From contig JADKGL010000029.1 of the NCBI GenBank assembly GCA_016722295.1, positions 147,040 through 211,039 on the forward strand: a stretch of DNA of 64,000 bases, written 5' to 3'. Source of the DNA: Saprospiraceae bacterium (GTDB taxonomy: Bacteria > Bacteroidota > Bacteroidia > Chitinophagales > Saprospiraceae). A model generated the notes under the pieces. The model was not told where the DNA came from. It did no database searches and saw only the letters and a program-made list of their open reading frames with translations. The translations under genes and the position numbers were made by a program. Shown here one piece after another: positions 27,775-39,666 of this stretch (position 1 is its first letter; each line of letters starts with the position of its first letter).

Positions 27775-28341
27775 TTAGCAACAAGTTACTTTCATTCGAA
27801 GATTATTCCAGTAGGTTTTAGTTGCATTACACACAGTCATAATATGTATTATTGCTAATATAACTGCACCCGGTATTAAATTTACTGCAACAAACTTAAA
27901 TAGTTCAAAGTTTTTTAAATAGCTAAGGTCTTGAATTATTTCAATTCCACTTTCCGTTATTGTAAGTTTAAATGAAAGAAATACTGCGATTGAAGCAAAA
28001 TGAAACCCATTTACGAACAAATGTAAAATATATTCCCATCGGGGAAGCCCACCCATAAAACTCCTACTGTCCTTTTCCACATAAGCATCTATTCCAAGTA
28101 CAATAATATCCAATGCAACAAATAAGATGCCTAAATAAAAACTTATCAGACTATTTTGGATGATGAATAAAAAATAGACGATCAAGGGAAATAATATTGC
28201 TCTGATGGTATGAGTTAAATGTTCAAAATTGCTTTCCTTATGATTGAAAAGTTGATATTTGAAAATATGAAGATAAAAACCATCAATAATCGCTAATATT
28301 GCAAATACTGAAATTAAAATTGTGGAGATTAAAAAGCCCAT
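27775..28341 (-). CDS. hypothetical multi-pass membrane protein
   Basis: The track ORF starts at a TTG (28401). The first ATG gives MGFLISTILISVFAIL. Five or six hydrophobic helices; no family recognised. Confidence 0.5.
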   Translation of the reverse strand: MGFLISTILISVFAILAIIDGFYLHIFKYQLFNHKESNFEHLTHTIRAILFPLIVYFLFIIQNSLISFYLGILFVALDIIVLGIDAYVEKDSRSFMGGLPRWEYILHLFVNGFHFASIAVFLSFKLTITESGIEIIQDLSYLKNFELFKFVAVNLIPGAVILAIIHIMTVCNATKTYWNNLRMKVTCC

Positions 28342-28849
28342 TTTATAATTGTTGAAAATTTCAACAAAGATCTGTATTTGCTGCGACTTTCCAAAGGACA
28401 AATGTCCTCAATTTATTTATTCACAAACTTCTTGTCGGGTTGTTGAATTCAAAAGATTAGGCTTGTAGATCGGCTGTTCTCAACTCATCTTATGTGAACT
28501 ATTGGATTGTGAAGTCTTAGTTATTTCTGAGTTGTCATTAAAAATAGCGTTCCTATTACTATAACATCTTGTAAAAAATGTATTGTCCAAGCCCAAAAGA
28601 AGCCGTTTGTTTCGTCAAGTGATTTACTTCAAGGTTGGTTGTTTGAGATGGTGAATTAATTTTATGATCAAGATTAAAATTTGGATCTTAATGCTCTAAA
28701 TCTAAGACCAGAGGTGTGAAGCTTTTAATGATTGGAAGAATCCAAACAAATTTAATTGATAATAAGTCAGCAAATTCGTACTTACAATTTTGTCCAAAAA
28801 TCATTCTCATAGAAAATACATAGTTAGGAATAAAAAATCCTATAAAGTA

Positions 28850-28868
28850 AGATCGCAGTTGAAAACTG
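28850..28868. repeat. copy A of a 19-nt repeat AGATCGCAGTTGRAAACTG
   Basis: agatcgcagttgaaaactg; 18/19 identical to 29671-29689, same orientation. The flanks are also similar (aaatcct.../aaattcct...). Confidence 0.7.
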
Positions 28869-28891
28869 TATCCAATCCAAGAAAACTGCAA

Positions 28892-29425
28892 CTAAGGCAA
28901 TTTGATTATTTTAGAAAATCTTCTAGTTAAAATCACATCAAAATCATCTGCTGAGGGCCCATATGTGGCAGGGACAGGAATGTTTAGTAATCTTAAATAT
29001 ACGCCTAGTTGTGCGCGATGGTGGACCAAATGGTTCATGCAGAATAGTCGTAAAACTTGCTTTTTTGGCAAAGTAAAATATATTTCTTCGCCATGAGTCA
29101 TCGACCAATCCTTATTTAATTCTTCATCTGTTAGGATTTGGAGCGAGCTTGTAGATTGAGTTAATAAATGATCAAAATACTCTAGCAGTTCTTGTGTTGT
29201 TTTTATTTCAGCAGGTTCAAAGTTGCTAAAATCTAATTTGTCTTGTTCTGCTACATTTTTCCACCAAGCAATAATTTCTGCTAGATGTATGGCTAGTCGT
29301 CCTAATTTTTCAGATTTTTCAGCTGGCTGGAATTCTGATCTTTCAAATGGTATACATTCTAAATATCGTCTCGTTACTTCTGCTTCTAGACTTAATTCCT
29401 GAAGTAATTCTTGTGCTGTTGTCAT
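28892..29425 (-). CDS. DinB-family protein
   Basis: 177 aa. DinB-like four-helix pattern with His triad candidates (AIHLAEII, MNHLVHHRAQLGVYLR). Confidence 0.8.
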   Translation of the reverse strand: MTTAQELLQELSLEAEVTRRYLECIPFERSEFQPAEKSEKLGRLAIHLAEIIAWWKNVAEQDKLDFSNFEPAEIKTTQELLEYFDHLLTQSTSSLQILTDEELNKDWSMTHGEEIYFTLPKKQVLRLFCMNHLVHHRAQLGVYLRLLNIPVPATYGPSADDFDVILTRRFSKIIKLP

Positions 29426-29442
29426 TTTTTTTTTTTTTTTTT
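29426..29442. repeat. 17-nt homopolymer (A17 on the coding strand) abutting the DinB start codon
   Basis: The plus strand reads gtcat followed by T through 29442, an 18-T run counting the T of the start-codon complement. Confidence 0.95.
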
Positions 29443-29670
29443 AAATTATGCCTTTGCTATGACAATAAAATCAAGGGAAAGTTTACTAGGCTAAGTCTCG
29501 CTCTTTTGCTGAAGTGTGGTTGTGTGATGGATGTCTATTTATGTGGAGATCATTGAAAACATTATGTAGCATATCACTAGTGTCTAATAGAATGCCCATT
29601 CTGTGAATTGAAAATCCTAAAATAGTAAACAATTTAGTTGTTGATTGGAATTCTAAATTCCTAGTATATT

Positions 29671-29692
29671 AGATCGCAGTTGGAAACTGCGA
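29671..29692. repeat. copy B of the 19-nt repeat, forming a perfect hairpin
   Basis: agatcgcagttggaaactgcga. tcgcagtt (29674-29681), gga loop, aactgcga (29685-29692): 8-bp stem. Confidence 0.7.
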
Positions 29693-29864
29693 CTAATTAG
29701 TTGAATCTATATTAAGAAATGATAAACCACATTTTTTTTATTTTTGTTCAATTGCTTTACTTATTAGATCTTGTCTAAAATAATTAGTAAGTGCTAATAA
29801 AAAATTTAAATTTGCGCCAAGAAAATAGTCATTCTCCTTCAAACTATGTACATATAAATTCCTA

Positions 29865-31145
29865 TTAATCCACTTTTTTAAGGTATTCCTTTATAAAATC
29901 TTGATACTTTGAATTTTCAGAATATTCTGCATTATCATTAGTTATAAATTTTCTTGTTAGAATAGGGTGTCTAAAACTCTTTTTAAAAATTTTTAATTTT
30001 TTTTCCATGTCAGTTTTGAGATTTGTATAGTACATATGTCTATCTTCATCTTTTACAAAGATTGGTATTCCATTAAAAAGATTAAAATATTTATTATAAA
30101 TAAATAAATATAATGAACAAATAAATTCTTCCTTTACATGATCTGCTAATGTGAAACTTGATCTTTTAATTGCATCATCACTATTTTTATAATATGCCTC
30201 CAAGTAGAACCACAAATTAGTTAGCAATTCTGATCTTTTTTTTGTGTCCCTCCCTGTTATAAATAGAAAATCATTATCAATTAGGAATTTATCAATTGCC
30301 TCATCAATTATTATCTTATTTTTCTTGTATTGTATGTAAAGTGAATCAATTAAATTGTTTTTGTCAAAATCTATATTCTCTTTATTTTGTATGGAAGAAG
30401 CATTAGACAATTTATAAGCGAAATCAATTATGTATTGATTTTCGGTAAATCTTCCTAAAGTATTTATTGCTACTTGAACTTTATCTCGAGCTAAATTAAT
30501 AGTATTTGAATGGTTGTTATTCATTTCCACAATAGCGAATATAGTCTTATCTGATATTATAGGATTGCCATATTTGTATTTATCATAATCTTCATTAAAC
30601 CAATTTTTGTTAATATAATCTGGTAAAGTTGAAGTAAATTTTACGTCAAAAAAATCAATGTCTAAATTATTTTTTAACTTACTGTGTGGTTGAATGAAAA
30701 ATGTAGCTGTTTGCTTTGATTTAAAATAGCAATAAATTAGTTCAACTTCTTTAATTTGATCAACTAATTGTCTATTCTTGAAATACTGATCAAGGTCGTC
30801 ATATTTATCCTTTAAATGTCTTATTTGTTCCTTATGCTTTTTGGAACTATTACAAATATTTTTTACAATATTATTTATATCAATTGAACTGGCTCCAGTC
30901 AAATAAAATTCCACAGCTATAAGTTTTGTATGAAATAAAATACAATCTATAATACTGTGATTATTGGAAATACTGTCTAATTCTTCATGGCTTATGATGT
31001 GATTGATAATTTTTTGCAGACATTTGCTGAAATAGGTTTCTTCTAATTGGTTCAAAAGCTCTTCTAAGGGAAAAATATATTCTTCAAAGTTAGGAGTGTT
31101 TTTATTTTCGTCCAATAAATTTATATAACTTTTTAGTTTAGACAA
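29865..31145 (-). CDS. hypothetical protein (426 aa from a TTG; probably about 520 aa with an upstream frameshifted segment)
   Basis: Long ORF in very AT-rich DNA with no motif I can assign. The only start candidate is TTG at 31145. The frame is open upstream to 31355, and an ATG-initiated ORF (31426..31271) lies in the adjacent frame. Confidence 0.6.
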   Translation of the reverse strand: MSKLKSYINLLDENKNTPNFEEYIFPLEELLNQLEETYFSKCLQKIINHIISHEELDSISNNHSIIDCILFHTKLIAVEFYLTGASSIDINNIVKNICNSSKKHKEQIRHLKDKYDDLDQYFKNRQLVDQIKEVELIYCYFKSKQTATFFIQPHSKLKNNLDIDFFDVKFTSTLPDYINKNWFNEDYDKYKYGNPIISDKTIFAIVEMNNNHSNTINLARDKVQVAINTLGRFTENQYIIDFAYKLSNASSIQNKENIDFDKNNLIDSLYIQYKKNKIIIDEAIDKFLIDNDFLFITGRDTKKRSELLTNLWFYLEAYYKNSDDAIKRSSFTLADHVKEEFICSLYLFIYNKYFNLFNGIPIFVKDEDRHMYYTNLKTDMEKKLKIFKKSFRHPILTRKFITNDNAEYSENSKYQDFIKEYLKKVD

Positions 31146-31467
31146 ACATTCAGAATTATAATCAAATATTCTATAATGATTATTTTCTTTTCCTAGTATA
31201 TTTAAGTAAAAGCAAATGTTTCTTTTAGCATATTTTGGATTGTTAAATTTAACTTGATAATAAATACTTTTTATAACTGTCTTATGATTTTCACATGGAA
31301 AGTCGTAATGTTTGTTTGTAAAATTAAAAGCAATGGAAAGGCAATCAAAAAATATTTAACTTTTGCTTCAATTTTTTTGTCAGGATATGTTATCGCAGAA
31401 AAGAAATCATAATTTTGTTTATGCATTTTGTCAATTACTTATTTGTTATTAATTAGCAAACTCAGTT

Positions 31468-32322
31468 TCAATAAGATTCTTTCAATATTCTGGCTTCCCT
31501 TAAAAAACCATCTTTTTTCAGAAAATCAATAATTATATTTCTTATTTCATCGTCATAATTTTTGCTTAATATATATCTAAAAGTAGCGTTGCGGTAGAAC
31601 TTGATTCTACTTTGCTTATTAGCAGTTTCTAAAAATAACTTAACTTCATTTGGATTCTCTGAATAATTGAATTCTTGAATTGTACTATTTTCTTTACATA
31701 TTATTCCGATTCCATCCATAGTTTTGATTGTTATTGATGAATCTCTTTTTTTTCTTATTTGATTAACGCGTTCCACTAATTGTTCTAATTTAATAGATTT
31801 AAACTCATTTTGAAGAAGTTCAATAGTATTTTCTCGATCTTGTTTATATAAATCATCAGAATACCTCTCCTGTTTTCTGTTTTCAAAATCTTTGTCACTT
31901 TTGTAGATGTCTGCCAATAATACAGAGCTTTCAGCTGTTATTACCATTGATAGAAATTCATCTATATTTTCCGCCACTATATTTACTGGTGGATCATATG
32001 AGGTAGCAACACTAACAATATAAGCATTATCAAGATTTGTTACATTATTAAAATCTGTTAAAAACCCAAAGTGGATACCATTACTGCCTGTTCTTGCAAA
32101 TGGAATAACGTCCAATGGAGTAACGCTATAATGCACATCATAAGCAATTCCGAATTCTAAATCATACCAGTCAACAATTTTCTTATCTTGTAATTCTTTA
32201 AGCTTAATTAATGTCTTTGGTTTTTTGAAATGGCCAAAGTATTTGTCAGTCCGATTATTACAACTTATAAACGAAAATATCGAAGTAAAAATTATTGTTT
32301 TAATTTTTTCTAATGTACTCAT
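31468..32322 (-). CDS. hypothetical lipoprotein
   Basis: 284 aa. Signal plus lipobox IIFTSIFSFISC. The N-terminal half has VIPFARTGSNGIHFGFL ... ENIDEFLSMV, loosely reminiscent of SUKH/SMI1-KNR4 immunity-type domains (weak, by eye). Confidence 0.6.
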   Translation of the reverse strand: MSTLEKIKTIIFTSIFSFISCNNRTDKYFGHFKKPKTLIKLKELQDKKIVDWYDLEFGIAYDVHYSVTPLDVIPFARTGSNGIHFGFLTDFNNVTNLDNAYIVSVATSYDPPVNIVAENIDEFLSMVITAESSVLLADIYKSDKDFENRKQERYSDDLYKQDRENTIELLQNEFKSIKLEQLVERVNQIRKKRDSSITIKTMDGIGIICKENSTIQEFNYSENPNEVKLFLETANKQSRIKFYRNATFRYILSKNYDDEIRNIIIDFLKKDGFLREARILKESY

Positions 32323-32650
32323 AACTTATTACCTTGAAACATTCATTTTTTTGGCTAATAACTTTTATAAATAATGTTTTGAATGCATCATTGCGTATAT
32401 CAAAAAAATTTCTACAATGATAGATAAGAAAATTGAAGTTTACCTTTATTTTCTAAAAATATTATTATTCATAGTAAAATTTACAGGTTTAACCTGACAT
32501 AGTTGATATGAAACATCATTAATTTAGAATATGAACGCAAAAGTTTACACATCAGTTTGTTCTTATATCTTCTCTCAATTTTTGATTTTTTAGCTTCTCT
32601 ATTACCTAGAAATTAAGGATTCTGAAATTGGGCAAAAGCCTGTTGTCCAA

Positions 32651-32675
32651 TTGGTCCAACAATCCGTTGGACCAA
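32651..32675 (-). terminator. 10-bp hairpin just downstream of tspO
   Basis: ttggtccaac (32651-32660), aatcc loop, gttggaccaa (32666-32675); 10 nt after the tspO stop. No clean U-tract follows, hence the low confidence. Confidence 0.35.
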
Positions 32676-32684
32676 TAAAGACCC

Positions 32685-33143
32685 CTAATTCCTCAACCAA
32701 ATAAAAGCATTCAAAGAACTAGCTATGAGCATCCAAACGAAATATGGAAGAAGTAAAGTTGATTTAAAGCGTAACTGTCCAAAATACTTGAATAAGAAAT
32801 ATCCAATCAGTAAGGTCAATGAAATAATAATGATCAAGGCAAAGCTAGTCTGATGCAATGTGAAAAATACAGGATTCCAAACGACATTGAGTATCCATTG
32901 GAAGGCATACATGATGATCAATGTTTTTTTGTCCTCGATCTCATTCCATAAATATGCCATATAGAATGAAAAGCAAATCATAATGAATGTCCAAGCAAAA
33001 CCAAAAACCCATCCTGGTGGAGTCCAAGGCGCTTTATTCAATGCGTTATACCAATCTGATGTTACACCAGATGAAGTGGATAATCCACCTATTGCAAGAG
33101 CAGCGAAGTTTAAGATTAGGAATATTATGGTTTTTGATATCAT
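32685..33143 (-). CDS. tspO: TspO/MBR tryptophan-rich sensory protein
   Basis: 152 aa, five TM helices. WYNALNKAPWTPPGWVFGFAWTFIM signature. Confidence 0.85.
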   Translation of the reverse strand: MISKTIIFLILNFAALAIGGLSTSSGVTSDWYNALNKAPWTPPGWVFGFAWTFIMICFSFYMAYLWNEIEDKKTLIIMYAFQWILNVVWNPVFFTLHQTSFALIIIISLTLLIGYFLFKYFGQLRFKSTLLLPYFVWMLIASSLNAFIWLRN

Positions 33144-33288
33144 ATTGGATTTAATATTTGATTGTAAATGTAAGAAGAATAATTATCCTGAGAGTAGATC
33201 TAATTAAAACCTTTTAGTACATATTTAAACTATTCGTGCCATTTTTCCGATACAATAGAAATATTATTTTGTCAACAAATCCCATTAA

Positions 33289-35496
33289 CTACAACTTACT
33301 TTTAGTGAACGGAATAGTAAAATGTCCTGATTCACTTTTGATTTGAATCCAGTATTGTCCTGGTAGAAGTAATTCGATATTCCAATTCAGATTTATGTCA
33401 CTTCCTTCGATAAATTTTGTTGATAATATAGTTCCATTGGCATCTATGATTTGTAATGTTAGCTTTTGAGCTTGTTGAAATTTAAGCATTAAACTAATAT
33501 GATCTGAGCTAGGGTTTGGATGTATTTGAAATGAAGTGAGACCTTCTATTGTGCTTATTGTTGTGCTCACATTGATTGTAGTACAATGTACGCGTTGGCA
33601 ATCATTACAATCACTGATCGTCACACAATATTTTCCAACAGCAAGATTGTTTATTTGATTATTTGTAGATCCATTGTTCCATTGGTAAGTATAGGGAGTG
33701 CAACTGCCTGTTGGAGTTATAGAAATGGAACCATTTGACTTTCCGGGATCTGTGTTTTTTACGATGGTCTTCACGGCAAATGCAGCAGTATCGAACAGGA
33801 GTGATGTGGATACACCATTACTTAAATTATAATAACTTCCACTTCCACTCGTTTTCAATGCAGTACTGCGCACTAGATAATGAATTAAACCTTTTTGAAC
33901 ACAGACATCCATGAAACTTGTGTCTGAAATTGCTTGAGTATTGAGTAATTGATATGTGCTATCTGAAGCATATTTTGTGTAAATATAAAATCCTGAAGCA
34001 GATTTTGGTCCACGCCAAGTAAGTCGAACGCTAAGCCCTTCCTTAGTAGCAAGTAAATTCTGGACTGGATCAAGTACAGGCATACAGATGGTAGGGTCAC
34101 CCATCAATGCTGTGGATGCATATCCGCCATAGAATCGTGGGGCATAGAGACCTCTGTTGTTCATTGCGAGTTGTGCGGCATATCCTATCGGTTCACCAAG
34201 TGCCATATGATGAAACAACCAATTTGGTCTGTTGCCATAAGTGCTATTTAAGCAAGTCCTTGATGCAATAGCAGCGCGTAGAAAATTATTTGGATAATCC
34301 CAATCACCAAAATACGAACCAAACAACATAGTGAAAAGAGTCTGAAGAGAATCGGACGTAAAATTTGTAGTATTGGTAATATCTGAAGCACTTTCTGGGC
34401 CTCCACCACCACAGCCATAAGACCAAAGGTAAGACTGATTCGATAGGGTTTGACGATAGGGTAGTTCCTTTACATTATTTATTCCAAACATTACTGCAAA
34501 ATTCTTCCACCCCGATTGCCCCAAAGCTTCCAAGTCTAATGGAAAATTATTGTCAATGAGTCCTCTTTCTTCCATCTTTATTTTTCCAATTCGCCAAGCA
34601 TGATTTTTGTCAAGATATCGCTTGAGAAGTTGTTCCTCAGATTCTGGAAATTTATTCATATTGCTGAAATCAACTCTGCCGATTAAGAAATGAACTTTCG
34701 AGGGAATCACATTATTGTCAAATTTGCCATCACCTGGGATATTGTCATTTCTTGAACTTGCTGCAGTTTTATTATTGACAGTTTGATCCGTCCATAGGCC
34801 ATCAATCGTGCCATAGTAGCCATCACAAGGCCATGCACCGCGATGATCGCTATGATGTCCATCTGTGGCTATGTCGCCACTGTAGGGTACAGGAACTCTC
34901 CCTAAGATAAATAATGCTTTTTGCCGATCAGAAATATTTTGTAACCAATTCAATATTTTATTTTTTACTTGGGGCACGGCATCAGTTCTCTCAACTGAAA
35001 TCGTATCGACAGTCCAGCCATCCCCTTGCAAATCATCCATCAGACGAGTTATCTCAAATGAAAGTGTTTTAACTATGCTGCGTTCAATTAATACTAAACA
35101 AGTACCTCGATGATGTGTAGGAGGCACTTTTTTACCTGAGTAGATATATCCAGACCCAAAGTTGCGAGTGCCATCTCCATAAGGAAATGCAGGAAGACTT
35201 TTGAGGATTTGATATTCATATCCGATTCCAGACTGAACCGATGTATCTATCCAAGAGGTAGAGTAGGGTGGTAAATAAATGAGACTATCACCCCAAGTCT
35301 CTTCGTTAATTGATTTTCTCCAAATGGTATATCCACCATTTGCAGTGTCAAGCTTCCAGCTCAATTTTATTTGTGTTGGACTATCTTGCACTGTCGCATT
35401 CATTATTACAGACTGTCTAGCGTCATTTAAATCTTGCGCCACCAATATTGAATCAAGAAAACAAAAAACGAGGAAACAGAGACCAATTAATTTCAT
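33289..35496 (-). CDS. large secreted protein with FN3-like modules, SprB-type repeat and T9SS C-terminal sorting domain
   Basis: 735 aa. Signal peptide; Cys-rich SprB-like repeat (GSISITPTGSCTPYTYQWNNGST..CVTISDCNDC); C-terminal FQIHPNPSSDHISLMLKF...WIQIKSESGHFTIPFTKS T9SS-type tail. Central domain unassigned. Confidence 0.8.
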   Translation of the reverse strand: MKLIGLCFLVFCFLDSILVAQDLNDARQSVIMNATVQDSPTQIKLSWKLDTANGGYTIWRKSINEETWGDSLIYLPPYSTSWIDTSVQSGIGYEYQILKSLPAFPYGDGTRNFGSGYIYSGKKVPPTHHRGTCLVLIERSIVKTLSFEITRLMDDLQGDGWTVDTISVERTDAVPQVKNKILNWLQNISDRQKALFILGRVPVPYSGDIATDGHHSDHRGAWPCDGYYGTIDGLWTDQTVNNKTAASSRNDNIPGDGKFDNNVIPSKVHFLIGRVDFSNMNKFPESEEQLLKRYLDKNHAWRIGKIKMEERGLIDNNFPLDLEALGQSGWKNFAVMFGINNVKELPYRQTLSNQSYLWSYGCGGGGPESASDITNTTNFTSDSLQTLFTMLFGSYFGDWDYPNNFLRAAIASRTCLNSTYGNRPNWLFHHMALGEPIGYAAQLAMNNRGLYAPRFYGGYASTALMGDPTICMPVLDPVQNLLATKEGLSVRLTWRGPKSASGFYIYTKYASDSTYQLLNTQAISDTSFMDVCVQKGLIHYLVRSTALKTSGSGSYYNLSNGVSTSLLFDTAAFAVKTIVKNTDPGKSNGSISITPTGSCTPYTYQWNNGSTNNQINNLAVGKYCVTISDCNDCQRVHCTTINVSTTISTIEGLTSFQIHPNPSSDHISLMLKFQQAQKLTLQIIDANGTILSTKFIEGSDINLNWNIELLLPGQYWIQIKSESGHFTIPFTKSKL

Positions 35497-35619: not shown

Positions 35620-37947
35620 CTATCGTCTTCCATCAAAATAGACTTTAAAATTATCACAATTGGAAACTAAATCATCTAAATACTTGGGATATTTAAGTTT
35701 CAATTCGTAATAAAATGGATTTTGAATCTTAAGCAAATCATAATCATAATCCACATCTTTTTCGATATATTTGTAACTCATTTTGTTTTGCTCACAACGA
35801 ATCAACATTCGCAAACACAATGCTTTAAACTTATCTGTTTTTGCATATTTTTTGGCTAATAAATAATACTTTTTTGCTAAATTCGATTGCCGAAATTCTG
35901 CCTCGTCTTCAAAGTCTGAAAGATAAAAATCTGACCAGCTGTTAAATCTTCTCATCATCGATATATTTCCTTCTGGTCCCATATTATAATAAGCATTTGC
36001 TGCTAAAAAATAGTAATAATCTCTGTCTTTTTCCCTATTGTCTTCTGCTTTGTGAAGGAAGTTGATAAGTTGTTTAGTAATCGTGTATTTGTTAAGAAGA
36101 AAAGTATCCTTTGGAAAAATAAATTTTGGCGTGTACTTAAAATTATAAAAAGGATTCTCATTAAAAATGTTGTTATTTTCACTCCATGCTGTGTAATTTT
36201 GATCCCAATACTGATATTCTATTTTGTTAAAAGCTGATGCAGCATTTTCTAATTTATTTTGTCGGATATATTTTGTACCAAGTAAATCATACAATCTGGG
36301 AACTTCTGATTGTATGTTTTGATATTTGAATATTTCAAATCTGCTTGTATTTGTTTTGCTCCTTTGAATATCATTTATTAATCGTTGTATTTGTTCGGGT
36401 GTATAAACTACATCAATATACTCAAAATAATTTTCAAAATATTCAGTATATGAATGCTTTCTGCTCTTTGTGGTCTTCCAAAACAATGGTGGCTTTTCTT
36501 CCCAAGAATTATCTAATTTTGAAAAAAAAATTGCAGCATCTGTATTGTTTTCTAAATATTCTAACTCTTTTCCTATCGCAAAAATAAATTGTCCATTTTT
36601 TTGATTTGCTAATATCGTTGATTGAACTTCTTTAGGTATTATAGCGCTTCCTTTTTTTTGACGAGCTATAAGCGATAATGTTTTGAATATTTGTAACTGG
36701 TTAATAATTGTTGTGTCTGGAGTTAATTTTTCTAATTGGTTGATGGTTATTAGACAAGCATTATAATTTTTTTTGATGAATAGTAAGTGGGATTTGCAGC
36801 ATTTCCATAAAAATGGATTTTCTACTTTATTGATATTGACAGAATTAATGAATTGTAAAACTTCATTAGCATACATTCTGTCTTTCTCTGAACGAATAAG
36901 CACTTGACGAGTGGAAGTATGGCCATTATTTTCCCAATAATCATAAGAAATTGAAGGTTGAAATAAAGTGTAATATGGGGTAAATACAAAATCTTCAATT
37001 TTATTGATTTCACGCAACAATAAAAAAGAAAGACCGTCAGATGAAGGATTAAGTACATACATTTTTTGGAGACAAGCTATTGCTTTGTCAGGTTTTTCTA
37101 TGCCATAGAACAGATAAACATTTGACTTTTCAATTTTTGTCTTTGCAAACTTTAGTGTTTGCTCCAATGGAACATTGGATCTATAGTTTTGATGACATAC
37201 AAAACGCTTGTCAATGGCATTTGCAAAAATTTGTGCTAAATCAAAATTAGCTCTTGCTTTGTTAGTTTCAGCAAATGTTTTGAAGTATAAGCTCCAATAA
37301 TAGAGAATGTCTTTGTTTGGTTTTTTCTCGAATACAGTAGCAAACAGCGATTGAATTTTATCATATTGTTTGTTGTACCAAGCTAATCGGATGGCTATAA
37401 ATGTGTAACGTTCTTTAAGGTTTTCATTTTTGACTTTATTCGCTAATGTAATTGCCCTATTAATTAATTCTTCTCGTTTAGGCATTTGCAGAAATGAGTT
37501 TCGTTCCCATGGGTCTTCTCGCCATGAATTAAAAAATTCACAATTTTTTGCAAAGCGTAGATAATTTAATGCATCACTATCATGGTGATGATATAAGTAT
37601 TTTATCATTTGGTTCTCAGAGTACGTATCAATTTCAGCTTCTCTCAATTTATAAATTGCTATATCAATTGAAGGAATATCTACTTTTTTATTACAATATT
37701 CAAACCAAAATTTGGTATTTTGCTCAACAAATTCTTTAGGGGAACTACCTTCATTAGGTGTAAACAAATCTGCAGAATAATAAAAATTTGAATATGTGCT
37801 ATACCCAAAAACCTCAGGATTAAAAAGAGAAATACGCGTAGCCTCACCATATGGATAATAACCACAGGCACATAAAAGTTTATTTAGTAAAATCAGTATA
37901 AAAAGTAGTAAGTTCTTCATTTGTAAATTTATTAAATTGATCTTCAT
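35620..37947 (-). CDS. large hypothetical lipoprotein
   Basis: 775 aa. The alternative ATG at 37920 gives MKNLLLFILILLNKLLCAC (lipobox). Helical, repeat-like composition; no family recognised. Confidence 0.65.
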   Translation of the reverse strand: MKINLINLQMKNLLLFILILLNKLLCACGYYPYGEATRISLFNPEVFGYSTYSNFYYSADLFTPNEGSSPKEFVEQNTKFWFEYCNKKVDIPSIDIAIYKLREAEIDTYSENQMIKYLYHHHDSDALNYLRFAKNCEFFNSWREDPWERNSFLQMPKREELINRAITLANKVKNENLKERYTFIAIRLAWYNKQYDKIQSLFATVFEKKPNKDILYYWSLYFKTFAETNKARANFDLAQIFANAIDKRFVCHQNYRSNVPLEQTLKFAKTKIEKSNVYLFYGIEKPDKAIACLQKMYVLNPSSDGLSFLLLREINKIEDFVFTPYYTLFQPSISYDYWENNGHTSTRQVLIRSEKDRMYANEVLQFINSVNINKVENPFLWKCCKSHLLFIKKNYNACLITINQLEKLTPDTTIINQLQIFKTLSLIARQKKGSAIIPKEVQSTILANQKNGQFIFAIGKELEYLENNTDAAIFFSKLDNSWEEKPPLFWKTTKSRKHSYTEYFENYFEYIDVVYTPEQIQRLINDIQRSKTNTSRFEIFKYQNIQSEVPRLYDLLGTKYIRQNKLENAASAFNKIEYQYWDQNYTAWSENNNIFNENPFYNFKYTPKFIFPKDTFLLNKYTITKQLINFLHKAEDNREKDRDYYYFLAANAYYNMGPEGNISMMRRFNSWSDFYLSDFEDEAEFRQSNLAKKYYLLAKKYAKTDKFKALCLRMLIRCEQNKMSYKYIEKDVDYDYDLLKIQNPFYYELKLKYPKYLDDLVSNCDNFKVYFDGRR

Positions 37948-39309: not shown

Positions 39310-39609
39310 TTATATTTTTAACGAATTCCAAATTTCTTTAGCTCTTGCTATGTTTCTTTTTTGCGTTGATTTATCTCCACCTATTAGTAAAACTATAATC
39401 TTACCGTCCATTTGTTTAAAATAAACACGATAACCTTTTGCATAGTCTATTTTTAGTTCTCTAATTCCACCGCCAACAGATTCGCAGTCACCAAAATGTT
39501 CTACTTGTTCTAATTTTTGAATCCGCATTAAAATCTTAGCTTTAGCTCGAAAATCTTTCAATTTTCTGAGCCATTTGTCAAATTCTGATGTCTTTTCAAT
39601 CAAATACAT
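39310..39609 (-). CDS. RelE/ParE-superfamily toxin (putative addiction-module killer protein)
   Basis: The track ORF starts at TTG 39636. ATG at 39609 gives the 99-aa MYLIEKTSEFDKWLRKLKD...GGGIRELKIDYAKGYRVYF..GGDKSTQ, the classic killer-protein pattern. Confidence 0.85.
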   Translation of the reverse strand: MYLIEKTSEFDKWLRKLKDFRAKAKILMRIQKLEQVEHFGDCESVGGGIRELKIDYAKGYRVYFKQMDGKIIVLLIGGDKSTQKRNIARAKEIWNSLKI

Positions 39610-39666
39610 TTTATGACTGTATTCATTCGGATACAAATTTATCGAAATTTTATTAATTTTGAATTA

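Follow-up and report, generated by a model that had tools for sequence, protein, structure and literature searches.

A frameshifted gene with a HEPN-type motif and a gene for an HPF1-like predicted lipoprotein between dinB and tspO of a Saprospiraceae bacterium

In a stretch of 64,000 nucleotides (nt) from the genome of a Saprospiraceae bacterium (contig JADKGL010000029.1, positions 147,040 to 211,039; hereafter the window), the interval between dinB and tspO (29426-32684) carries two genes on the minus strand. The upstream gene encodes a predicted lipoprotein of 284 amino acids (aa), and the downstream gene, here referred to as the large gene, encodes a protein of 563 aa when intact. A first-pass annotation of the sequence had described the pair as an AT-rich, horizontally acquired defence or immunity cassette. 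The explanation that we favour, with a little better than even confidence, is that the interval instead holds two independent accessory genes, namely an orphaned HEPN-type defence-island gene and a gene for a predicted lipoprotein that shares its fold with HPF1 and whose N-terminal domain is SUKH-like. HPF1 (histone PARylation factor 1) is the cofactor of PARP1 in animals. We read both genes as independently acquired and the large one as an orphan that lacks a restriction partner. The most interesting result, which was not planned, is the bacterial HPF1-fold family.

The distribution of the two gene families argues against a single module. Outside the species, relatives of the large gene were found at five independent loci (L001, L004/L072, L005, L006/L007 and L013), and none of these has a neighbour of the 284-aa family (0/5). 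Conversely, no relative of the large gene occurs at the eight other loci of the 284-aa family (0/8). The two families co-occur only within this species; the proposed two-gene cassette fails on this point, and the two genes are not to be annotated as one system.

The unusual composition and arrangement of the interval were as described earlier. The guanine-plus-cytosine (G+C) content of 29426-32684 is 26.0%, compared with a window mean of 32.6%, which is the minimum among all 3.26-kb stretches of the window (0.4% of them are as low; about 3 standard deviations, with a standard deviation of 2.2 G+C points for stretches of this approximate length). The large open reading frame (ORF) has 24.5% and the 284-aa ORF 28.1% G+C, and 400-nt segments across the interval range from 22.5 to 31%. 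The two genes are co-oriented, and 41 nt separate the stop of the 284-aa ORF from the ATG of the large gene (31426). An origin as a mobile island, as suggested by the first-pass annotation, agrees with the outlying composition; the surroundings show no marks of mobility, with neither an integrase nor a transposase nor a tRNA gene in the window and without direct repeats on the two sides of the gene pair. The features of the pair are as follows, X1-X3 being three metagenome contigs of the same species:

31468-32322, minus strand: gene of the predicted 284-aa lipoprotein (ORF list)
32260-32322, minus strand: signal peptide and lipobox MSTLEKIKTIIFTSIFSFIS-C21, read by eye from the sequence with no dedicated predictor run
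29738-31426, minus strand: large gene, 563 aa when intact (comparison with intact copies)
31271-31426, minus strand: 51-aa ORF, 5' piece of the large gene (ORF list)
29865-31145, minus strand: 426-aa ORF, main piece of the large gene, in a frame that differs from that of the 51-aa ORF (ORF list)
31347-31352, minus strand: frameshift 1 (-1), T6 in the window and T7 in the intact form (codons KYFFDC); X1-X3 have an additional A after 31346
29870-29873 (about 29871), minus strand: frameshift 2 (-2), GTATGG changed to GTGG; AT is inserted after 29871 in X1-X3
29846-29863, minus strand: codons R-N-L-Y-V-H, candidate HEPN Rx4H catalytic motif, in the out-of-frame tail

The large gene and its relatives

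The closest relative of the large protein (P0041) has 563 aa and is 98% identical to it. The contig that encodes this relative (L008) shares 99% nucleotide identity with the window, and blastn alignment of the two revealed exactly two indels within the large gene. Frameshift 1 cuts the 51-aa ORF off from the 426-aa ORF, and frameshift 2 results in a premature stop at 29865-29867 and shifts the frame of the final 44 codons, which in intact copies run to a stop at 29738-29740. The contigs X1-X3, which originate from wastewater or digester metagenomes and share 95-99% identity with the window, run from dinB to tspO with the same gene order and are intact at both frameshift sites. As the intact form is present in all three metagenome contigs and in L008, the window copy is therefore either a strain-specific pseudogene or an assembly error, and this is how the large gene should appear in the genome annotation. 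The reading frame had already been recognised as disrupted, which is correct, but by two frameshifts and not by one; the product of 426 or 520 aa proposed at that time has to be replaced by the 563-aa protein.

The family of the large gene is rare: an index of 5.8 billion proteins yielded 6 matches, and a set of 1.84 billion clusters 26 representatives. When 19 members, with identities down to 17%, are aligned, only five columns are invariant (L150, E410, R523, N524 and H528), and R523, N524 and H528 are also invariant in an alignment of six close sequences. The conserved core thus reads (E)QRNxxxH, located in a predicted helical C-terminal region, together with the invariant upstream glutamate E410. 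HEPN domains have been described by an Rx4-6H motif, a polar residue (N, D or H) directly following the arginine and another acidic residue that is conserved upstream of the motif (Anantharaman et al., 2013; PMC3710099). In the large-gene family, R523-N-x3-H528 corresponds to the motif, N524 to the polar residue and E410 to the upstream acidic position, from which we infer that the C-terminal region may represent a HEPN-type metal-independent RNase domain. The first-pass annotation had reported that the large protein has no HEPN Rx4-6H motif, which was wrong; it was missed because RNLYVH is encoded just past the second frameshift. No family of any kind was identified for the large protein or its relatives by Pfam, PADLOC and NCBIfam scans and by profile searches against PDB sequences. 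The large protein has no signal peptide. An ADP-ribosyltransferase (ART)/PARP-like reading of its central beta-rich domain received no support and was dropped.

The genomic contexts of the relatives fit a HEPN-type defence gene. At L005 and at L006/L007, the start of the relative and the stop of a type IIG restriction gene resembling MmeI share 8 nt, [A/G]TGCATAA (L005 3075-3082; L006 1488-1495). The MmeI-like genes of these two lineages are only 33-36% identical, and the overlap in both suggests translational coupling. At L001, the relative directly follows HsdR-like, Bro-N and N6_Mtase/Eco57I/Methylase_S genes of a type I-like system. Three independent loci thus show adjacency to restriction-modification genes, two of them with the 8-nt overlap; this is not the case for the window copy, which has no restriction neighbour. 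At L013 (9956-13916), only 180 nt separate a distant relative (20% identical) from a Hachiman system (HamA and a DEAD/ResIII helicase), and the relative at L004/L072 has a gene for a tyrosine integrase at a distance of about 7 kb. The relatives are 6-13 G+C points below their flanks (24% compared with 31-38%) in five of six loci elsewhere. The sole result of a metagenome scan for further loci of the large gene was the L004 island once more. On that island, the start of the 497-aa relative P0046 (L004 10001-11494) appears to be miscalled, as the same island in another metagenome (L072 6995-8710) contains a 571-aa ORF with the full N-terminus. The contexts support a defence-island family, whose members occur next to restriction systems or Hachiman, or near an integrase gene. 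The earlier defence assignment is therefore upheld for the large gene, by way of its relatives, and not for the pair as a cassette.

Links to restriction-modification systems have been reported for at least 16 HEPN clades, which were interpreted as PrrC-like second-line RNases (PMC3710099). The large-gene family resembles such restriction-linked HEPN RNases (PrrC-PrrI, AbiJ, AbiU2, AbiA-CTD and the MAE_28990 type; PMC3710099) in the invariant R-N-x3-H near the C-terminus of a helical region, the invariant upstream glutamate, the multi-domain organization with an unrelated N-terminal region, the position of the relatives' genes directly after, and translationally overlapping, restriction-modification genes, and the AT-rich, patchy distribution. 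It differs from the described HEPN families in that no profile similarity to them was detectable in the four resources given above. In addition, the N-terminal helical and central beta-rich regions of the large protein (motifs TFFIxPH, NHSxT and AR) match no known family, two lineages have as the partner a type IIG enzyme of a single chain, similar to MmeI, and not a type I system, and the window copy is frameshifted and lacks a restriction partner. As its members match no HEPN profile, the large-gene family can be considered no more than a new candidate family of restriction-linked HEPN effectors. The family represented by the large gene is rare and unannotated, has a HEPN-type motif and is missed by the PADLOC 2.0 catalogue, and we regard it as a candidate second-line defence effector. 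By analogy to PrrC-PrrI and the restriction-linked HEPN clades, the intact large protein would act as a second-line effector of the abortive-infection type, and its partner system would keep it inactive until that system is defeated. In the window, the restriction partner is absent, and the two frameshifts deprive the protein of its first 94 aa and of the putative catalytic tail, so that the gene copy is either non-functional or mis-assembled.

The family of the predicted 284-aa lipoprotein

The 284-aa protein belongs to a family of about 40 relatives without Pfam assignment. Judged by eye, 9 of 33 members, including the window protein, have a hydrophobic lipoprotein-type N-terminus ending in a cysteine, and the N-termini of three more resemble ordinary signal peptides; the Firmicutes-type members have no signal. 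An AlphaFold2 model of the window protein, based on an alignment of 33 sequences, reached a predicted local distance difference test score (pLDDT) of 92.4 and a predicted template modelling score (pTM) of 0.88. When this model was compared to the PDB by Foldseek, only four matches were significant, all of which were HPF1 (6tvh, 6tx3 and both chains of 6tx1). These had E-values of 4.6e-5 to 1.7e-4, a probability of 1.0 and 305-311 aligned columns covering the full length, and the next match followed at E 0.9; no match was obtained among viral structures. The predicted model thus displays the two-domain fold of HPF1.

Similarities at the sequence level are in line with this structural match and follow the same order along the protein. 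The HPF1 family of Pfam (PF10228) was the sole match of the window protein (E 1e-3 across the whole library, in the N-terminal domain; residues 78-214 aligned to model positions 45-156), at a score of 19.3 bits, which is below the gathering cut-off of 27.1; three of the 33 relatives match this family at E<=1. Conversely, a hidden Markov model of the bacterial family matched human HPF1 in the C-terminal domain (p 6e-5; R193..G206 aligned to R213..G226). By eye, G79-x-N-G-I-H-F-G-F-L-T-D90 of the bacterial protein resembles G121-D-N-K-T-Q-Y-H-M-G-Y-F-R-D134 of human HPF1, the sequence of which was checked against PDB 6m3g. Of the key residues of HPF1, Tyr238 and Arg239 serve PARP binding, and Asp283 and Glu284 belong to the joint active site; they are not clearly retained in the bacterial family. 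In an alignment of low confidence, the column of HPF1 residue Tyr238 is occupied by F or Y in 29 of the 33 members, the Arg239 column is variable, and the Glu284 column contains E or D in 18 and Q in 8 members.

Taken together, the 284-aa family shares with HPF1 (PF10228; PDB 6tx3, 6tvh, 6m3g) the full-length two-domain fold, as its sole significant PDB matches, a collinear N-terminal motif (G-x-N..H-x-G-[FY]-[LF]-x-D), the C-terminal-domain motifs R-[DN]-x2-[IV]-x2-T-x2-G-x-G and ERL-K-x-[FY], and in most members an aromatic residue at the Tyr238 position. In contrast to HPF1, the family is bacterial and often carries a lipoprotein signal or signal peptide, by which its members are predicted to be exported in Bacteroidota. 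Its members end about 60 aa earlier at the C-terminus, the equivalent of Arg239 is not conserved, an acidic residue at the catalytic Glu284 position is found in little more than half of the members, the Pfam score stays below gathering, and no PARP or ADP-ribosyltransferase gene lies near the genes of the family. The 284-aa protein is HPF1-like and not an HPF1 orthologue. Two longer members of the HPF1-like family, P0007 (443 aa, L010 8001-9332) and P0009 (464 aa), have an extra N-terminal region of about 170 aa without Pfam match, and P0009 has a signal peptide.

The first-pass annotation had noted a faint likeness of the lipoprotein to SUKH/SMI1-KNR4 immunity domains. This likeness was recovered weakly and below the gathering scores: SUKH_6 (PF14568) matches 8 of 33 relatives (best E 1.1e-3) and SMI1_KNR4 (PF09346) one (E 5e-3). 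With SUKH proteins, the family has in common an N-terminal domain in which a helix is followed by a beta-sheet and which has a motif of the 'IPFA-x-xG-xG' type, and the character of a small accessory gene of patchy distribution. It differs from them in an additional helical C-terminal domain, in the absence of an adjacent toxin gene in nine loci, and in that no solved structure of a SUKH protein reached significance in the fold search, where Syd ranked 16th (E 3.8). The N-terminal domain of human HPF1 (residues 36-181) itself gave a weak match to SMI1_KNR4 (SUKH-1; E 0.033, profile positions 8-105 of 125). These weak matches in both the bacterial family and human HPF1 suggest that the N-terminal domain of HPF1 is SUKH-like, a link that we did not find stated in the literature searched.

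Elsewhere, genes of the 284-aa family are solitary among unrelated genes (eight other loci: L009, L010, L011, L058 and L068-L071). They occur amid housekeeping genes and are only 0-3 G+C points below their flanks, and in all nine loci no ART/PARP domain, toxin gene or immunity-gene array was present next to them. At L058, the gene lies 3.3 kb from dinB, which was judged to be coincidental as six unrelated genes lie in between. The 284-aa protein would most likely serve in the cell envelope as an immunity or adaptor factor that binds other proteins, and not as a PARP cofactor.

A further step, which we propose tentatively and with somewhat less than even confidence, is that the 284-aa family is a genuine prokaryotic homologue of HPF1 that shares its fold by common ancestry. 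The N-terminal domain of HPF1 would then be a SUKH domain, and HPF1 would derive from a bacterial SUKH-type immunity or adaptor protein that possibly docked on the active site of an ADP-ribosyltransferase toxin. The two domains of HPF1 have been reported to be without known structural homologs, and its N-terminal domain without known function (2025 review, PMC12596734). HPF1 has been described in metazoans and a few protozoa (discovery paper, PMC4858568), and we found no report of bacterial relatives in the literature searched. If the proposal is true, the 284-aa family would be the first HPF1 homologue reported outside eukaryotes, and descent of HPF1 from a SUKH-type protein would provide a concrete, testable origin for the composite active site of PARP1 and HPF1. 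A small bacterial family combining the HPF1 fold with a SUKH-like N-terminal domain would in this way offer an evolutionary origin for HPF1, and could also serve as a simple model protein for what the HPF1 N-terminal domain binds.

Alternative explanations for the gene pair

Several observations weigh against two independent genes of the HEPN and HPF1 type. The HEPN reading of the large protein rests on motif and context: no similarity to HEPN profiles was found in Pfam, PADLOC, NCBIfam or PDB sequences with the full-length protein, 19 relatives or C-terminal fragments, and an AlphaFold2 model of the 563-aa protein, based on the six-sequence alignment, was unusable (pLDDT 48.6), with helices predicted at 356-561. 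Foldseek with this model returned nothing below E 0.9, which is noise. The HPF1 fold match of the 284-aa protein has a template modelling score of only 0.45-0.52 and a root-mean-square deviation above 8 A. When the 284-aa family was compared by hhalign to human HPF1 or to a profile of vertebrate HPF1 sequences, the similarity was not significant (probability 1-2%), with a collinear local alignment; the vertebrate profile was narrow, having been built from the best 120 matches listed with human HPF1, all of them vertebrates. Regarding independence, the pair is kept in all strains of the species that were sampled, with the dinB-tspO arrangement intact. Since 41 nt separate the two genes and no hairpin was found between them, they are probably co-transcribed here, and a lineage-specific functional link between them may exist. 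Finally, the ratio of nonsynonymous to synonymous changes (pN/pS) of the large gene is 0.31 in comparison with L008 (22 substitutions), indicating no clear decay besides the two indels, which could themselves be assembly errors.

The close spacing and the joint retention within the species would also fit a toxin-immunity pair, in which the SUKH-like 284-aa protein neutralises a HEPN-type RNase encoded directly downstream. SUKH proteins are immunity proteins for nucleic-acid-targeting toxins, and the SUKH-type matches of the 284-aa family as well as the candidate RNase motif of the large protein agree with such a role. We consider this very unlikely, as the families never co-occur outside the species, intact large genes elsewhere have no such partner and are coupled to restriction genes, and an immunity gene upstream of its toxin would be an atypical order. 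In addition, a lipoprotein signal on the 284-aa protein and none on the large protein would place the two in different compartments. Only slightly less improbable is that neither gene has a role in conflict or defence, both being ordinary, poorly conserved chromosomal genes that are AT-rich by weak selection or low expression, while the defence contexts of the relatives are coincidental. This would be in line with the lack of an integrase, tRNA gene or flanking repeats, with the ordinary stress and envelope genes in the neighbourhood, with the housekeeping surroundings and near-normal composition of the 284-aa family elsewhere, and with the empty PADLOC result. It is difficult to reconcile with the large-gene family, for which four of five independent loci lie beside known defence systems and the fifth near an integrase gene, the 8-nt overlap with MmeI-like genes is retained in two lineages that have diverged, the G+C deficit relative to the flanks is strong and repeated, and the RNxxxH motif is invariant.

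A separate question is whether the frameshifts are assembly or sequencing errors, in which case the 563-aa gene of the organism would be intact and functional, as in the sister strains. One of the two indels lies within a homopolymer (T7 to T6), further indels between the window and the metagenome contigs (29424 and 32402) are likewise in or near homopolymers, and the intact copies in L008 and all three metagenome assemblies as well as the pN/pS of 0.31 would agree with such errors. What speaks against them is that the second indel, a loss of 2 nt, does not lie in a homopolymer, and that both coding indels fall in the one gene that is expected to be dispensable once orphaned, leaving the 284-aa gene and dinB untouched. 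No sequencing run with the exact genome was found (best k-mer share 0.71). We regard such errors as a possibility of some weight that is nonetheless doubtful.

Flanking genes, hairpins and repeats

Profile scans confirmed DinB and TspO as the products of the flanking genes, and the poly-A tract and hairpins noted earlier at the flanks were also found:

32685-33143, minus strand: tspO
32640-32672, minus strand: strong hairpin just past the tspO stop (-27.3 kcal/mol, z -5.05)
32323-32639, minus strand: AT-rich non-coding leader upstream of the 284-aa gene (by composition; no RNA-family match)
29672-29692, minus strand: terminator-like hairpin GUCGCAGUU-UCC-AACUGCGAU, 46 nt past the true stop of the large gene (z -3.45)
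29426-29442, minus strand: A17 tract, running directly into the dinB ATG
28892-29425, minus strand: dinB

Terminator-like hairpins are located 3' of tspO, of the large gene and of dinB, the last being a diverged copy (28851-28871) of the hairpin past the large gene. The hairpin at 32640-32672 sets tspO apart from the 284-aa gene as a transcription unit. With the true stop of the large gene in place, the non-coding stretch before dinB extends over 29426-29737 and not, as first described, to 29864. The A17 tract is variable in length between strains (one metagenome contig, X2, has an additional TT), which could affect dinB expression. An Rfam scan of 28000-34000 identified no RNA family, and a scan for sigma-70 promoters gave no scores above those of shuffled sequences, Bacteroidota promoters being outside the scan model.

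A direct repeat of 35 nt, 80% identical, occurs on both sides of dinB, at 28834-28868 (past dinB) and at 29655-29689 (past the large gene). It bears the hairpin GATCGCAGTTG[G/A]AAACTGCGA, a motif that is present twice in the window compared with 0.01 occurrences expected by chance. In a DinB scan of genome contigs, none of 54 loci had tspO near dinB, and synteny was entirely absent from the closest genomes outside the species (DinB 57-71% identical).

The neighbours of the interval are ordinary genes, encoding TauE, GNAT and beta-lactamase-fold proteins, DinB, TspO and proteins with type IX secretion system (T9SS) tails. A 208-aa multi-pass membrane ORF (27775-28401) and a 775-aa ORF (35620-37947) had no Pfam match at E<=1e-3. 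Of the toxin-antitoxin module reported about 7 kb away, an ORF of the Gp49/HigB-like toxin family was recovered at 39310-39636 (Pfam PF05973, E 6e-8). At the 3' end of tspO (32744), two of three same-species metagenome assemblies are 4 nt shorter than the window, a difference that would alter the last 20 or so TspO codons in one form or the other.

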